A DNA stretch of 7,428 nucleotides from Tubiluchus corallicola (Eukaryota; Animalia; Priapulida), in NCBI GenBank assembly GCA_030141605.1, contig JAQGDQ010000270.1:194284-201711 (forward strand). Reading direction: 5' to 3'. The notes under the pieces are model-generated. The model saw only the letters and a list, made by a program, of their open reading frames with translations. It did no database searches and was not told the origin of the DNA. Below, in pieces: positions 1,058 through 7,428 of this stretch. A program made the position numbers and the translations under genes. The first letter of the stretch is position 1. Each line of letters begins with the position of its first letter.

Positions 1058-1855
1058 TTATTTCCCTACTAATTTTGATGCCAATTGATTGATTGTATAG
1101 CTCGCGGGAAACTCGTTAATTCCTTTCTGAAAGTACTTTTTTGCTAAATTCCAGTTCTCATTTTTGATGTATAATTTGATAAGCATTTCATAAGATTCTT
1201 CCTTGCCCCAAGATGGCAAATACTCATTTTTTACTTTCTGAGCGGGTAAAGAAATTGCTTTTACCAAATATTTTTCGACTTCTTTTCCTCCTCCATATTT
1301 TTCGGGAGTGTGAAAATCGTTACTTGCATAAACATAATACGCCCTGAGATTTGTTGTGTCAATTGCAATGGCTTGTTTTACATTTTTCTTTATATTTCCT
1401 GAAATAAACATCGCTTTCATTCCTTTAAATTGAATACCAATACCTTGTAGCCATGCGAGAAGTGCGTAATCTTCAGAATTTTTATTTTTCATTTCTTCTA
1501 ACCAATTAATTCCTTTGTCTATTTCTTGCTCAGCGATTTCTCTATCTCCATTTTCTAGATAATATATAGATGAATAGAATTGTAAATATGAACGCCAGTA
1601 AAGAATAAGGTTTTGTTTCTTTTCTTTATTCAACTCTTCTAATTCTTTACTTATTTTTAAAAGTGGTTTATTGTCTTTTGACATTAAACTTTGTACAAAA
1701 GCATTGTAAATTTTACTTTGAATTCCAACAAGTAAAGAATCCGTTTTTACTTGTTCTAATTGCACTTGGTAACTTACTGCCTCTGTATTCGCCATTTGAG
1801 TTGCATTTCCCTTGCAGGATACAAATAATAATGAAATAAATAATAATCGTATCAT
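1058..1855 (-). CDS. Putative lipoprotein with TPR-like helical repeats, partner of the TonB-dependent receptor
   Basis: 265 aa; N-terminus MIRLLFISLLFVS-C resembles a lipobox (Cys14); TPR-like segments (VKQAIAIDTTNLRAYYVYA, NWNLAKKYFQKGINEFP); its stop abuts the receptor ATG (TAAATG at 1060-1055). Confidence 0.75.
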   Translation of the reverse strand: MIRLLFISLLFVSCKGNATQMANTEAVSYQVQLEQVKTDSLLVGIQSKIYNAFVQSLMSKDNKPLLKISKELEELNKEKKQNLILYWRSYLQFYSSIYYLENGDREIAEQEIDKGINWLEEMKNKNSEDYALLAWLQGIGIQFKGMKAMFISGNIKKNVKQAIAIDTTNLRAYYVYASNDFHTPEKYGGGKEVEKYLVKAISLPAQKVKNEYLPSWGKEESYEMLIKLYIKNENWNLAKKYFQKGINEFPASYTINQLASKLVGK

Positions 1856-1908: not shown

Positions 1909-2190
1909 TTATTTTATATATTGTTTAATTACTTTTACATATTCTTCAAAAGCATCAATTCCTGTACTTGTAATCTCAACTGATGTATGCTGATAGTTGT
2001 TTAAAAATCCCTTAGTTATTCTTATGTATTTTTCTTTTTCTAATTTTTTAAGTTGTACACTAATATTACCCGATGTTGCATTTGTAATTTCTTTCAATTC
2101 ATTAAAATCAGATTTGCCATTACTCACTAAATAAGAAATAATGGCTAAGCGAAGCTGAGAATGTAATAATGGATTAAGATTTTTATACAT
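1909..2190 (-). CDS. Winged helix-turn-helix transcriptional regulator (ArsR/MarR-like, HTH_34 type)
   Basis: 93 aa: LNPLLHSQLRLAIISYL..DFNELKEITNATSGNISVQLKKLEKEKYI..K....T..ITSTGIDAFEEYV is the typical pattern of this small wHTH family; overlaps the upstream gene by 8 nt. Confidence 0.9.
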   Translation of the reverse strand: MYKNLNPLLHSQLRLAIISYLVSNGKSDFNELKEITNATSGNISVQLKKLEKEKYIRITKGFLNNYQHTSVEITSTGIDAFEEYVKVIKQYIK

Positions 2191-2767
2191 TTTCTTTTCT
2201 CTTATGTTGAAGCATTAGTATGATGCCAGGAATTAAAATGGCAACTATTGAAACTACTCCCATTAATAGCGGGTGGTATATCCATTCGAGATTAAAGCAA
2301 ATAAAAGCAGAAAGGTTAATAAAAATACCGGAAATGATTATCAGCTTACTTTTTATTGAAATACCGGAAATAATTGTGCCGATAGATAACAAAATTAGAA
2401 TAACAGGAATTAGGTTTTCTTTTAGAGCAGGAGCAAATAGAAATCCCAAAATCATAATATTAACCGAAATAGCAATCCAATTAAAAGAGACGATTCTACT
2501 TATTTGATTTTGTTTATTCTTTCCTTTCTTTTTCGAAAAATAATAACCTGAATATATTGCCCCAATTGGCATTAACAGGTAAGGATACCAGTTAATATCA
2601 TAATATTCTTTTTTTAGAAGTATAAATTGACTTATTGATGTAATTGCAATTAATATTCCCCAAAACATATAAATAAATCCATTTTCTTCAAATTTATTTC
2701 TGGCTTGGGTAATTATTTGAGTAATTAACTCAAAGCTTTTCTCAGGTGATAATTTATCTGTTTCCAT
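2183..2767 (-). CDS. Integral membrane protein (about 6 TM helices), unknown function
   Basis: About six hydrophobic segments; N-terminal LSPEKSFELITQII pattern; ATG at 2767 preferred over TTG at 2776; translationally coupled to the wHTH gene. Confidence 0.8.
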   Translation of the reverse strand: METDKLSPEKSFELITQIITQARNKFEENGFIYMFWGILIAITSISQFILLKKEYYDINWYPYLLMPIGAIYSGYYFSKKKGKNKQNQISRIVSFNWIAISVNIMILGFLFAPALKENLIPVILILLSIGTIISGISIKSKLIIISGIFINLSAFICFNLEWIYHPLLMGVVSIVAILIPGIILMLQHKRKENV

Positions 2768-2932: not shown

Positions 2933-3110
2933 GGCTAACGGCTAATGTATGAGTAGTAGCGGACTTAAAAGCGGTTTCGTTTCAAGTAGCTAGGTAGCCA
3001 AAGCTGCACCTTATCCAAATAGTCAAATCGACAGATTTGGCGGGGATGAATAGAGCTACTACCACCCGAATACCCACAGAAACCGCTATTACTCATACAT
3101 ATTGTTAGGG
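2933..3110 (-). repeat. attC-like recombination site A
   Basis: Plus strand: GGCTAAC, 5 nt, 18-bp arm ATGTATGAGTAGTAGCGG (2945-2962) ... CCGCTATTACTCATACAT (3083-3100), ATT, GTTAGGG; 17/18 paired plus one G:T; lies 4 nt from the sulfatase stop codon. Confidence 0.8.
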
Positions 3111-3114
3111 GGCG

Positions 3115-4500
3115 TTATTCTTGAACCGATTTTCTCAACTGAATAGCATAACTATTCATATAATTCCTGCCTGTGGCCGTCACCATAGTTTTTGCAATTT
3201 CCATTAAAGCATCGGCTTTTAAGAGGACTATTTCCTTGTCGTTTTTGTCTAGGGCAAGCAGATAATCTGTCAGTTGGACAGCCCATTGATAATCACCTTT
3301 TTTAATGGCCGCAAAAGAATTTTTTCGCAATTTATCTCTTCCGCCTGCCATTTTTGCCATTCTTTCGGCTTCCTCTTTTGGGGCAAGTTTGTTAAGGTTA
3401 ACAGGATTGCCGTCAAACCAACCTAGGTAACCCTCAAAAATAGCACGGACACCCCAGTCCACACGGCCGTAATATTCTTTCAAATAAGGTTGTGATGCCA
3501 AATGTTCGGGCAACTGTACATATTCCACCAGCTCATCGGGTGTCAGACCCTTGTTTATGCCCTCAATGGTTTTATCAAACACAAATTTTATAGCATCGTG
3601 GTAGTTGCCCAATGTTTCTTTCACCTCTTCTTTCCCTACAACGGGGCGGGTGTGCCCGGGCAGTAAATATTCCGCCCCTTCGTCCCGCATTTTACCGATG
3701 CTTTTATACCAATTTCGCACATCGCGATACTGCGAACCTCTGATTGTATAGAGATTGGGAAAGGATTTGTAATAGCTGTCGCCACAAAAAAGAACTTTTT
3801 GTTCGGGCAGCCAAACATACATATTATCATAGGTTTCACCTGTGGCAGCCACAAACTCAAATTTAACGCCGTCTATTTCTATTTGTTGACGCTCTTGGGT
3901 GAAAAAATGCGTGGGTTTAAGCGGTGTGTTTTTTCTCTTTTTATTGAAGATGGTATTTTTCTTATCTGGTTTTGGGGCAATCCCGTTATTGATGTGCAAC
4001 GAGTCGGGCAAAATAACTCCGGCTTGACGGCTGCCACGAACATTTGCGTAAGTCAACCCCGCCATTTTTCCTGCATTACTTTCTATTCCAAAACCTTTAT
4101 TCTCACCAAGCTCCGAACTTCTAACCCAAATCTGAGGATTGCTTCCTTCGTCAAGGAAAGGCTTAATGCCCGCAAAATGGTCGCCGTGTCCGTGCGTTAT
4201 GATGATTGCCTTTATGGGCTTGTCAGTAATTTCGCGAAACTTTAACCTCAACGCCTCCATACGTATCGGCGACATTCCTGCATCAATCAATATTATTCCG
4301 GTTTCGCCCTCAAGCATACCTATGTTACTGACTTCATAACCTACGGCAAACCATACATTTTTATCGAACTTGAATATTTTAGGGACAAACTCCTTGTTCT
4401 GTTCGTGCAAAAGTTGAGTTGCTTCGGTTTGTTGTTGTGCTTTCGTAGTTGTGGAAAAAGCTGCTATCAGCATTAATAATGTGAAGATTTTTGTTTTCAT
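3115..4500 (-). CDS. Secreted alkyl/aryl-sulfatase family protein (metallo-beta-lactamase fold, SdsA1/BDS1-like, with dimerization domain)
   Basis: THGHGDH (HxHxDH), GETYD, PNLYTIRG, LLPGH, YYGRVDW, YLGWFDGNPVNL motifs. Signal peptide MKTKIFTLLMLIAAFSTTTKA-Q supports the ATG at 4500 rather than 4551. Appears to lack the C-terminal SCP2-like domain. Confidence 0.9.
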   Translation of the reverse strand: MKTKIFTLLMLIAAFSTTTKAQQQTEATQLLHEQNKEFVPKIFKFDKNVWFAVGYEVSNIGMLEGETGIILIDAGMSPIRMEALRLKFREITDKPIKAIIITHGHGDHFAGIKPFLDEGSNPQIWVRSSELGENKGFGIESNAGKMAGLTYANVRGSRQAGVILPDSLHINNGIAPKPDKKNTIFNKKRKNTPLKPTHFFTQERQQIEIDGVKFEFVAATGETYDNMYVWLPEQKVLFCGDSYYKSFPNLYTIRGSQYRDVRNWYKSIGKMRDEGAEYLLPGHTRPVVGKEEVKETLGNYHDAIKFVFDKTIEGINKGLTPDELVEYVQLPEHLASQPYLKEYYGRVDWGVRAIFEGYLGWFDGNPVNLNKLAPKEEAERMAKMAGGRDKLRKNSFAAIKKGDYQWAVQLTDYLLALDKNDKEIVLLKADALMEIAKTMVTATGRNYMNSYAIQLRKSVQE

Positions 4501-4558
4501 CTTTGTTAATATATTTTTTGTTAAGACTTTCTTTGGCTGGTAGCATCTCATTTATGCC

Positions 4559-4679
4559 CCCTAACGTTGAGTATATGCAAAGTAGGCGATTGCGGGCTTC
4601 AAACTTATCAAACCGTTACAATTTTTAAGCGGGCTACAGTCCCTGAATTTACTACTATTTCGTATATACATTGTTACAG
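4559..4679 (-). repeat. attC-like recombination site B
   Basis: Plus strand: CCCTAAC, 5 nt, GTATATGCAAAGTAG (4571-4585) ... CTATTTCGTATATAC (4655-4669), ATT, GTTACAG; 12/15 paired, two G:T, one A:C. Confidence 0.7.
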
Positions 4680-4689
4680 GCTGGCGTTT

Positions 4690-5994
4690 TTAAAATGTCT
4701 TTATCTCTCCATTTTCTAACCAATCGGGAATTTCAAATCCATTAGCTTTTGGATGTTGTTGAAAAATTGTCCTTAAGGCACGAATTGATGAATAAGACTT
4801 ATTTATTAATTCTTTTTGTTTGTCTATATATTTTAAATCATAATCATTTTCACTAATCCGATGCGCTGGGTTTTGCCTTTCTCTACGAACCTTTTTTAAT
4901 GGTTTAAAAATATCATCTTTATCAGGGTGATTGTAAGTTAATAAAAGCCATTCCTCTAGCAGTCTTAGCGTTCCTTTTGGCTTTCTTTCAACCATATTGT
5001 CATCTATTTTCTCCAGGTCATATAGCTCAACCTTATCTTTGAAGAAGTCTTTATTTAGGTTGTCAGAAATCATTTTATCCAACAACATCACAAATTCATT
5101 ATAATTTTTCAATGTCGGTGTAAAGAAAAACGTGAAAGATTTTGGTCGATTTTCTTTATCAAAAGTCTTGTTAAAAAGGTTTATGTCAAAAATTAATTTC
5201 GATAAATCGTTCAAACAATTTAGCTCTCCAAGAAACGCAGAAAAAATAGAGTGAGAGAAAGTCCAATTTCCATTGATTATATTTTCGTGATACTCTTTTA
5301 GCATTTTGCAGTCTTCTGAAACTTCTTTACCTTGCCAATAAGATTGATGTTCAGGAGTTAGGTCTTTTAAATATCTCAAATAAACAACAGCAAGCCTATT
5401 ACCTTTAGAATCAAATCCTAATCCGAATGATTTAAGAAATACTTGGTCTTCCTCTCTCACACTGGGCTTATCATTATCATCGTATTTACAAGATATCCTT
5501 CCAGAATAATCCTCAAATTGAAAATCAAATCTTGGGTCATTAGCGTATCGTTCAAGAACCTCAATTTCAAAAAATCTTGGAGTCAAATGAGGATGTGCTA
5601 ATGCTAAGAGTTTAGTGTATTCCGCTGCCCCATATACACCAGTGTCTCTATTGGAATTTAAATAATCCTGCGATGGGTAAAGGCAGATTGGAAATTCTGT
5701 ATTTTCACTCGAAATAGTAATTTCTCCAAACTTTTCCTCTGTCACTGTTATTTTTTTGGCGTCTTCAAGTATTTTTAATTGGCTTTCAGTGGGATAGTGT
5801 TTAAATACAATTATGTGAGGATTTGTACTGGATTGAATGGAAATCGAATTCTCCTTAACTAATTCTTTGATAATATCAATTGAATCTTTATAGTCAATCT
5901 GGAATTCTTCAGATATATTCCGCAATGGAACACCATTAAAATCAGTCGATTTTACAAAAAAATCATAAACTCTATTTCTTATCTTTTCTTTCAA
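4690..5994 (-). CDS. Hypothetical protein, 434 aa, with C-terminal RxxxxH (HEPN-like) motif
   Basis: Long ORF filling the cassette, TTG start; no signal peptide, TM segment or Walker A seen; C-terminal helical region has KKVRRE-RQNPAH. Confidence 0.8.
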   Translation of the reverse strand: MKEKIRNRVYDFFVKSTDFNGVPLRNISEEFQIDYKDSIDIIKELVKENSISIQSSTNPHIIVFKHYPTESQLKILEDAKKITVTEEKFGEITISSENTEFPICLYPSQDYLNSNRDTGVYGAAEYTKLLALAHPHLTPRFFEIEVLERYANDPRFDFQFEDYSGRISCKYDDNDKPSVREEDQVFLKSFGLGFDSKGNRLAVVYLRYLKDLTPEHQSYWQGKEVSEDCKMLKEYHENIINGNWTFSHSIFSAFLGELNCLNDLSKLIFDINLFNKTFDKENRPKSFTFFFTPTLKNYNEFVMLLDKMISDNLNKDFFKDKVELYDLEKIDDNMVERKPKGTLRLLEEWLLLTYNHPDKDDIFKPLKKVRRERQNPAHRISENDYDLKYIDKQKELINKSYSSIRALRTIFQQHPKANGFEIPDWLENGEIKTF

Positions 5995-6029
5995 TCGTTT
6001 CTATTTTGCAGTTGGTTTCTTACGCTTGC

Positions 6030-6108
6030 CTGTAACGGTGAAGCTATGCGTAGTGTTTTTTGTGTTGCGCCTACGGCAAAAAACATTACGTATGAGCTAT
6101 TGTTGTGC
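6030..6108 (-). repeat. attC-like recombination site C (short)
   Basis: Plus strand: CTGTAAC, 5 nt, AGCTATGCGTAGTGTTTTTTG (6042-6062) ... CAAAAAACATTACGTAT-G-AGCT (6077-6098), ATT, GTTGTGC; 21-bp stem with two G:T and one extrahelical G (6094). Confidence 0.85.
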
Positions 6109-6120
6109 TTTCGTGCTTTT

Positions 6121-6957
6121 CTAACTCATTACTGTTACAAATTCTAAAAGTCTCAATCCAATTTCTTCTTCACCATTAATTTTAATAATTGATTTATATT
6201 TCTCCTTCTCTCGGTCAGTGTTTGTAAATATCTTCCAAGCAATATTATCAGGAAGTTCAACTGAAGTGTTTATCTGATTTTCTGAATTCCCAAGTAATAT
6301 CCACTTATCAGTTTGTCTTTCAATTATCCAGCTTTTATTAAGAATTCCTGTCAATCTAACTTGAACTCTATAACCGTTTTCATAGTCAGAAAAGTCTTTG
6401 TACAAGTGCGGAAGCCCACGCATAAAGGTATCATATAGTGGTTTCGAGAATTTAGGTTCCATTAAAATTGGTTTTCCTAAAGCTAATCTGATTTGCATTT
6501 GATGATGCCAAACTTCCGTATATTCTCTAGCAGTATCAAACCAGTTTAGCGACTCAGTTTCGCCAGCCCAATTAACTGGAAATATTGCTATTTCATTCGG
6601 GTCTAAAGTTCCTATAAACTCATTGAATTGATTCTCCGAATATTCCAATAAATCAATTAATATTTCAGGACTTAATCGACGGCTAATATTCATCCAATCA
6701 CTATTCAAAGTTTGAATATGATTTACTAAATCACCGTATGATTGAATATTGGGTGTATTAGTTTTATCTGCAAAATGGTCTCTCTGAATTGACAATTTTC
6801 TTAGTGAACCATCAATTATGTGCGAAACTAAATCTTTTACTGTTCTTCCTTCTATTGGCGATGGCTTTAACCAATCAGATTCATTCAAGCTACGTAAAAG
6901 CTTTAATAATTCATCTGTCAACTGTGGGAATAAGTGTATTGTTTCTATCTGTTTCAT
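6121..6957 (-). CDS. Maleylpyruvate isomerase N-terminal domain (MDMPI_N, DinB superfamily) protein
   Basis: LLRSLNESDW.KPS...RTVKDLVSHI and REYTEVWHHQMQIR metal-binding motifs of the DinB/MDMPI fold; 278 aa. Confidence 0.85.
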   Translation of the reverse strand: MKQIETIHLFPQLTDELLKLLRSLNESDWLKPSPIEGRTVKDLVSHIIDGSLRKLSIQRDHFADKTNTPNIQSYGDLVNHIQTLNSDWMNISRRLSPEILIDLLEYSENQFNEFIGTLDPNEIAIFPVNWAGETESLNWFDTAREYTEVWHHQMQIRLALGKPILMEPKFSKPLYDTFMRGLPHLYKDFSDYENGYRVQVRLTGILNKSWIIERQTDKWILLGNSENQINTSVELPDNIAWKIFTNTDREKEKYKSIIKINGEEEIGLRLLEFVTVMS

Positions 6958-6996
6958 TATTCTTTATTTGTTCTGACTGGACTCTTCTTGCATGAA

Positions 6997-7185
6997 GCAC
7001 AACGGTTTATGTAAGTGGAGTGCGGGATTGAAAGTGATGACCTTTCAATTACGCATGGAGCCAATTCGTTTATTCATATTCTCTTTTTATAGCCAAATCG
7101 TCAAAGACGAATTGGCGGTGTTGCAACGGAGAACTGCGGTTGGATTACCCGCTGAAACCCGCATTACATTTACATTTTGTTAGCA
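6997..7185 (-). repeat. attC-like recombination site D
   Basis: Plus strand: GCACAAC, 5 nt, ATGTAAGTGGAGTGCGGG (7009-7026) ... CCCGCATTACATTTACAT (7158-7175), TTT, GTTAGCA; 15/18 paired, two G:T, one mismatch. Confidence 0.8.
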
Positions 7186-7192
7186 GTTGTTT

Positions 7193-7428
7193 TTATTTTT
7201 GATTTTCAACATTCTTGATAAATTCTTGTAGTTCATATTTTAAGGTTTTAATTTTATTTTCAAAGCTATATACTTTTCTATCAAATTTTGGCCATAACTT
7301 ATCAATTTGCTTAGAAATATCCCCCTCAAGTTCTTGTAATCTATTATCAAAAGCATATGCAGTTGAATTAAAGCTTTCAATTATTTTTTCATCATTTATA
7401 GAGTTCCACCATTTATAGAACTCATATT
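7193..7428 (-). CDS. 3' end of a hypothetical protein (partial, start beyond right edge)
   Basis: Not in the ORF track. Manual translation is open from the edge to TAA at 7195-7193: ...YEFYKWWNSINDEKIIESFNSTAYAFDNRLQELEGDISKQIDKLWPKFDRKVYSFENKIKTLKYELQEFIKNVENQK*; stops just before site D like the other cassette genes. Confidence 0.75.
   Translation of the reverse strand, partial: YEFYKWWNSINDEKIIESFNSTAYAFDNRLQELEGDISKQIDKLWPKFDRKVYSFENKIKTLKYELQEFIKNVENQK

Follow-up and report, generated by a model that had tools for sequence, protein, structure and literature searches.

What moves the genes of a 7,428-nucleotide (nt) stretch of DNA assembled from the priapulid Tubiluchus corallicola (contig JAQGDQ010000270.1, assembly GCA_030141605.1; hereafter the window), in which co-oriented genes alternate with inverted repeats bounded by AAC and GTT? 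We conclude that the whole window consists of at least five gene cassettes in a row, linked through hairpin sites and likely swappable. Very probably it is part of a cassette array whose units undergo excision and insertion at G|TT, catalysed by a tyrosine recombinase of Bacteroidota that is related to the integron integrase IntI, lacks the IntI insertion and is likely encoded elsewhere in the genome. The DNA itself appears to be of Bacteroidota origin, since one Bacteroidales and one Flavobacteriales metagenome-assembled genome (MAG) contain homologs.

Hairpin sites between the genes

The original prediction, made from the letters of this DNA, described inverted repeats of 71 to 181 bp in the gaps right of position 2930, each closely following a stop codon. 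A stem detector (pattern: AAC, 3 nt, arm ... arm, 5 to 6 nt, GTT) recovers exactly four such sites, E1 to E4 (Table 1), on the minus strand, where all open reading frames (ORFs) of the window lie, and zero on the plus strand at a score of 10 or more. Block-shuffling the window 60 times gave 0.08 sites on average and never more than 1. AAC begins 8 to 16 nt behind the stop codon, and all four sites read YAACA...CGTTR; the detector demands neither the A following AAC nor the C preceding GTT. Leaders from GTT to the start codon, announced as about 40 to 65 nt, measure 43, 39, and 62 nt (sequence and ORF list) but 169 nt in the final unit. The genes are indeed co-oriented and unrelated, though not always single, as cassette E holds four.

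A likeness to classical attC sites and Vibrio cholerae repeats had also been proposed. It extends to the R boxes but not to the arms, which mostly lack extrahelical bases: none is present in three of the four sites, and E3 alone is bulged, at position 8 versus position 9 in the classical sites examined. At all four sites the bottom strand, opposite the genes, gives the better hairpin, by a margin of 0.7 to 4.3 kcal/mol. The folding z-scores of E1 lie between -4 and -5, those of E3 between -2.2 and -4.1; in the same run E4 was folded with coordinates 8 nt short. Across each gene, the bases after GTT complement those ahead of the next AAC at 6, 7, and 8 of 9 positions, compared with just 1 to 3 of 9 inside single sites, and the ends of all three complete cassettes are complementary at 6 of 6. 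We read this complementarity across one gene as the scar left by an inserted circle.

E2, about 9 nt shorter than its length class, matches one site of a recombinase-headed array (L059) at 76% over 122 nt, and the ends of E1 resemble sites in loci L161 and L155. An Rfam search of the sites returned no matching family, E1 had no match among plasmids, and a terminator scan did not flag the window hairpins.

A site family with conserved G·T pairs and classical polarity

A 130-position model, R1, was built from 44 sites outside the window. R1 matches 86 of 151 Bacteroidota genomes (22 candidates scored per genome), a survey suggested with the original prediction, and 1 of 101 genomes in the phylum of a Clostridia MAG. 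In the R1 alignment 15 of 21 pairs covary, and a G·T pair is retained at three stem positions (44/44, 42/44, and 29/44 sequences); these pairs lie on the bottom strand and appear as A·C mismatches on the gene strand. The family has a stem of 16 to 18 bp, a spacer of 3 nt after AAC versus 5 to 6 nt before GTT, and length classes of about 45, 67, 122, and 187 nt. Among 63 sites (L077+129 nt and L108 left out, 67-nt copies collapsed), 52 have no bulge and 52 are more stable on the bottom strand; since sites were chosen for pairing, the paired percentages are inflated, while the selection did not extend to the G·T bias or the AACA/CGTT bases.

At other loci, cassette ends are complementary at 6 of 6 positions in 95 of 115 consecutive site pairs, compared with 20 of 164 within one site. 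In genome G245 (L085, L099 to L102), a 76-kb array holds 83 strict sites, mostly of one 67-nt type, all on the same strand and beginning behind a recombinase. An empty cassette of approximately 315 nt without a long ORF, present there in at least 24 copies, keeps its 67-nt downstream site in 24 of 24 while the upstream sites vary, and the same holds for four cassette copies in L120. Similarly, 14 of 15 pairs with common post-GTT DNA, which are not independent of one another, have unlike upstream sites (pair L130/L138 was dropped from these counts, a false site lying inside homologous genes). Identical cassettes thus keep the downstream site and swap the upstream one, so the polarity of these chromosomal and plasmid arrays is classical.

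In two window-type sites, one on a Chryseobacterium and one on a Chondrinema plasmid (L120:16680-18560 and L122:8620-10470), an antisense group II intron interrupts the R'' box at TA|AC. IIC-attC introns target the bottom strand of attC (PMC3001079), and by analogy the antisense introns in window-type sites may lend support to bottom-strand recombination.

Mobility of the units

The array had been thought to begin at position 2933; this start has to be moved, as the four-gene block to the left is also a cassette (cassette E). Its 28 relatives differ widely in upstream DNA. Six have a GTT leader by pattern, plus a variant in L126, and others often have no recognisable sites. In five relatives (L126, L130, L132, L135, and L148) the block runs for about 3.9 to 4.0 kb from GTT-x to x'-AAC with complementary ends, and the ends covary among relatives (GGCAC/GTGCC versus GCTAC/GTAGC). 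The array therefore spans the whole contig.

Window cassettes are found in other contexts and break at GTT, which bears out the proposal of a gene-capture array. A homolog of cassette C in L001 shares its complementary ends and differs in neighbours and hairpins; in L002 the homolog has no sites. Contigs from four sequencing runs contain no joint that skips a cassette, although contigs drop rare variants. The best-matching DNA runs may come from the source sample itself. One further run matches positions 2135 to 2929 and then stops, a weak hint only, and no RNA sequencing runs carrying the window are listed.

A tyrosine recombinase without the IntI insertion

As the original prediction stated, the window holds no integrase; its guess of a divergent tyrosine recombinase is borne out in other Bacteroidota, where the same site family heads arrays beside an enzyme that is not IntI. 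A TIGR02249 search of two MAGs with homologs of the 434-aa protein of cassette C found no IntI; it did reveal a tyrosine recombinase of 382 aa, behind which a hairpin with GTT stands where the contig ends. The enzyme heading this site family scores 193.6 bits against TIGR02249 (cut-off, 265), with positions 180 to 240 unmatched. The IntI-specific insertion, a suggested check, is missing: catalytic Arg and His are 89 to 90 residues apart as against 131 in two IntI proteins, a difference of about 41 residues. Catalytic residues are invariant in 24 of 24 members, and the fold is that of a tyrosine recombinase. In a quick tree (L062 and L066 being mis-extracted fragments, the former dropped), the insertion-less enzymes group with IntI and IS91-linked recombinases, in an unsettled order. 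Xer proteins form a separate branch (100, Shimodaira-Hasegawa-like approximate likelihood ratio test), which places the enzymes outside XerC/XerD. The L004 enzyme passes the NF040815 (NCBIfam) cut-off and has no match among viral contigs.

Sites and enzyme keep a fixed geometry. At 40 recombinase loci, 61 strict sites are downstream and co-oriented, 7 upstream and divergent, and none shows either of the two remaining arrangements; downstream sites occur at 18 loci, 9 of which have two or more. A further 19 loci have 39 upstream-divergent sites versus 0. We observe two layouts: a long enzyme (345 to 405 aa, carrying an additional N-terminal domain) that the array follows, and an enzyme of about 280 aa divergent from the array. 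In both, a short hairpin and GTT without an AAC box stands at the array head beside the enzyme, a putative attI-like site. Of 24 members, one has a Pfam HARP match in the extra domain (E = 0.00078); the model of this domain has a predicted local distance difference test score of 63 and a best Z of 5.5, and the missing HARP match in that fold search carries no weight.

Of 301 genomes of the phylum, 111 encode a homolog of the enzyme, and sites are present in 44 of 50 genomes with the short enzyme versus 42 of 101 without it, genomes that are not phylogenetically independent. In a genus search the enzyme appears in 10 of 19 genomes, mostly at contig ends, and incomplete assemblies often break at the recombinase. 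Two Chryseobacterium plasmids (L120 and L121) share backbone genes and the recombinase and carry different genes after it.

Canonical integrases in the same phylum

The original prediction placed the array in a lineage where integrons are little described. This does not agree with our sample, in which 50 of 151 genomes of the phylum, bearing no class labels, encode canonical IntI above the TIGR02249 cut-off. The phylum includes non-Bacteroidia classes. This frequency is far above what published complete-genome surveys suggest; one complete integron is reported for Bacteroidetes proper (PMC9024848), and Bacteroidota are among the phyla listed with integrons (PMC8618304).

Seven IntI-headed arrays, walked among 20 loci (L189 to L208), have classical attC sites, 42 of 51 with a bulge in the 5' arm. 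The chain walk replaced a strict classical-attC detector, insensitive with 5 hits in the 20 IntI loci, whose count of 0 of 90 is not used. R1 matches strongly in 1 of the 20 loci, L189, whose genome also encodes the short enzyme. Window-type sites are not associated with IntI (31 of 50 genomes with it, 55 of 101 without; P = 0.39), and two genomes in which no IntI exceeds the cut-off, G001 and G002, contain 17 and 19 sites. As site presence tracks the short enzyme rather than IntI and the IntI arrays are bulged, these comparisons indicate that two systems coexist in the phylum, each enzyme with its own site type.

Proposed mechanism and alternatives

In the mechanism we propose, the strand opposite the genes would fold into a stem of 16 to 18 bp and be recombined by the enzyme as single-stranded DNA, as by IntI, with crossover at G|TT on the bottom strand. 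Strand choice would come from the conserved G·T pairs and the uneven spacers of 3 versus 5 to 6 nt instead of extrahelical bases; with strand choice so provided, we propose, the IntI insertion would not be needed. Units are ordered GTT-x, gene(s), x'-AAC, hairpin, the hairpin remaining behind its own gene, and arrays of this site family point away from the recombinase. Sequence comparison shows the architecture, the mobility and polarity of the units and, in other genomes, their link to the insertion-less enzyme; we infer recombination itself and the presence of a short recombinase in this host.

Several observations weigh against this mechanism. No excision circle or biochemical activity has been observed, and neither recombinase, attI, nor promoter was found in the window, so that the link to the enzyme runs through the site family only. 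Free folding of E2 is not significant (z, +1.2/+1.5), E3 is bulged within a mostly bulge-free family, and R1 detects E1 and E4 only weakly because of their greater length. No strict downstream site follows 22 of the 40 recombinases, and the 42 genomes that carry sites without a detected short recombinase also tell against it. A homolog of cassette C differs in its downstream hairpin at 76% protein identity, and one pair with common downstream DNA also has its site in common (0.93).

Two further observations on the negative side also favour rival explanations. L189 has four window-type sites 4 to 6.5 kb upstream of its intI locus, as might be expected if a canonical host IntI moved the units as ordinary cassettes and the window were a classical integron part or attC cluster without an integron integrase (CALIN). 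The frequency of IntI in the phylum, the classical R boxes, and the bulge of E3 agree with this, and bottom-strand recombination is reported to persist in some attC sites that have no extrahelical bases (PMC5027507). We nevertheless consider it quite improbable: walked IntI arrays use another, bulged site family, R1 is strong in only one of the 20 IntI loci, sites occur irrespective of IntI, and the sole family member tested in print, P12002L_attC1 (R1, 27.8 bits), was not integrated by IntI1 (PMC9892861). The second observation, sites scattered over many contigs in some genomes, would suit dispersed miniature inverted-repeat transposable elements, repetitive extragenic palindromes, or terminators without cassette exchange, as would the length classes. 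This idea is largely refuted. Flanks are complementary across genes and not duplicated around hairpins, ends covary with the gene block, the four window sites are unlike in length and interior and show no target duplication, all strict sites of G245 share one strand behind the recombinase, and the Rfam and terminator scans were negative.

A mirror polarity, with crossover at the AAC box and the hairpin travelling ahead of its gene, would fit the spacer asymmetry and the genes of phage P12002L, which run opposite to its sites; it is hardly credible given that in the arrays of chromosomes and plasmids copies of one cassette retain the site downstream and vary in the one upstream, and that the first cassette is preceded by a site without an AAC box. 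A less remote alternative, compatible with the proposed origin of the array, is an orphan relic, its cassettes fixed in a host that no longer has the recombinase. The contig without an enzyme, a frameshifted TonB-receptor gene, the shortened E2, relatives of cassette E without sites, and sites in 26 of 70 genomes with neither enzyme detected all point this way, while the intact cores and fully complementary ends of the three complete cassettes, and the frequent position of the recombinase at assembly breaks in incomplete assemblies, point the other. We consider such a relic possible, yet clearly less likely than an array still served by the insertion-less enzyme.

Cassettes and cargo of the window

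TABLE 1 Sites, cassettes, and genes of the window
Feature	Position	Strand	Description
Site E4	7001..7181	-	attC-like hairpin, 181 nt, long class, TAACA...CGTT; R1 weak, E = 0.047
Site E3	6034..6104	-	attC-like hairpin, 71 nt; one extrahelical C (bottom strand G); R1 32 bits, E = 3.2e-7
Site E2	4563..4675	-	attC-like hairpin, 113 nt (~122-nt class); R1 70.6 bits, E = 3.8e-17
Site E1	2937..3106	-	attC-like hairpin, 170 nt, long class; R1 weak, E = 0.15
Cassette A, partial	7003..7428	-	3' end of a gene at 7193-7426 without family, plus E4
Cassette B	6036..7002	-	DinB/MDMPI_N-family protein (6121-6957) plus E3; ends GTTGTGCT / AGCACAAC
Cassette C	4565..6035	-	434-aa protein (4690-5994) plus E2; ends GTTACAGGC / GCCTGTAAC
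Cassette D	2939..4564	-	Alkyl-sulfatase-like metallo-beta-lactamase-fold protein (3115-4500; 42% GC) plus E1; ends GTTAGGGGGC / GCCCCCTAAC
Cassette E, cut by contig end	1..2938	-	Four genes; starts GTTAGCCAC
Cassette E gene	2183-2767		Membrane protein
Cassette E gene	1909-2190		Winged-helix regulator
Cassette E gene	1058-1855		265-aa protein
Cassette E gene	from 1057		TonB-receptor-like

The GC content of window segments ranges from 25 to 42%, and the 7,486-nt contig ends inside genes. Of nine homologs of the cassette B protein, one is a cassette in another context (L181). The 434-aa protein of cassette C, translated from a TTG start, belongs to no family in Pfam, NCBIfam, or PADLOC, falls weakly into unnamed clusters of the Atlas (recognition 2271, below 2300), and is a candidate accessory or defence gene; PADLOC gave no convincing match for the window cassette genes. 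The nearest homologs of the cassette D protein (67 to 70%) are plain chromosomal genes without sites.

Within cassette E, the 265-aa protein has distant matches only among the 301 genomes. The TonB-receptor-like gene is frameshifted near 575-587 (frame change within 548-590) relative to an intact 717-aa relative in L132, with identical letters in two runs of one sample. Promoter scans were at chance level, the array head lying outside the contig. TAnnTTTG is a promoter consensus. The cassette E leader (2790-2820 and 2852-2913) has a promoter-like TAnnTTTG motif kept in relatives and a 21-bp inverted repeat, and the cassette probably has its own promoter.

Implications

The IntI insertion and the extrahelical bases of attC are taken as a matched pair that defines integrons, and surveys call integrases by the insertion (PMC4889954, PMC9024848). 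If a widespread system lacks both features, the integron counts of a major phylum would have to be revised. It seems to us probable, if less firmly than the reading of the window itself, that Bacteroidota carry a parallel second kind of integron, with an insertion-less recombinase and bulge-free, G·T-marked hairpins, in about one-third of genomes and in arrays of at least 80 cassettes. It would coexist with canonical integrons without common sites, would likely be missed by IntI-profile surveys, would feed phages, and would be the platform from which tet(X3) was taken.

If this is true, neither the IntI insertion nor extrahelical bases are required for cassette shuffling, and the system may resemble the integron ancestor. 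It would allow a direct test of strand choice in single-strand recombination and of the origin of integrons from Xer-like enzymes, would open large cassette pools to gene discovery, and would offer a likely origin for the "xerD/tnpF"-tet(X3) unit. The window contributes one cassette that holds four genes in 4 kb and another built from an ordinary metabolic gene.

Comparison with known systems

Literature in PubMed Central and bioRxiv yielded no description of this system, subscription papers being mostly outside that coverage; the accessible parts of PMC5637372, PMC13700133, 10.1101/2025.09.30.679653, 10.1101/2024.05.13.594038, and 10.1101/2024.07.02.601686 make no mention of it. An "integron-like" subgroup of simple tyrosine recombinases in which the insertion is not fully conserved has been described (PMC8138268), and the available text links its insertion-less members with neither cassette arrays nor attC-like sites. 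Where recombinases near attC lack the insertion, they are not counted as IntI (PMC4889954).

Polaribacter phage P12002L (L188:30006-39247) contains seven R1 matches (E <= 1.5e-4), one of them attC1. Like other CALINs it is a site cluster with no integrase in view, as is the window, beyond whose short contig a neighbouring enzyme may lie, but the phage genes oppose the sites and the window genes do not. Its sites sit among methyltransferase and small genes that run opposite to site polarity. They have been treated as classical attC, and IntI1 integrated attC2 but not attC1 (PMC9892861); R1 does not match attC2.

A "xerD/tnpF" gene is known beside tet(X3) (PMC8635130), and this gene linked to tet(X3) shares 56% identity with the L004 enzyme. 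The truncated copy before tet(X3) in L119:4043-6150 (NZ_CP041297.1) belongs to the insertion-less family in the quick tree, and about 25 other Acinetobacter plasmid hits are among the matches listed for the gene. A hairpin and GTT lie between it and tet(X3), and TAAC with half a hairpin follows; the ends are only partly complementary. The unit looks like a captured first cassette.

As in class 1 and Vibrio sedentary integrons, the system has GTTRRRY and RYYYAAC cores with complementarity across the cassette, a site behind the gene, crossover at GTT, and a bottom strand that folds better. It shares with them co-oriented unrelated genes, empty and multigene cassettes, arrays of tens of kilobases, antisense group II introns in sites, and, in the quick tree, an enzyme that groups with IntI apart from Xer. 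Unlike integrons, its enzyme lacks the insertion of about 41 aa, its stem mostly lacks the extrahelical bases whose role in attC has been described (PMC5027507) and has fixed G·T pairs and a 3-nt spacer, its putative attI-like site is itself a hairpin, and its enzyme comes in two layouts. The array works like an integron, yet it is not a member of the classical IntI/attC system.

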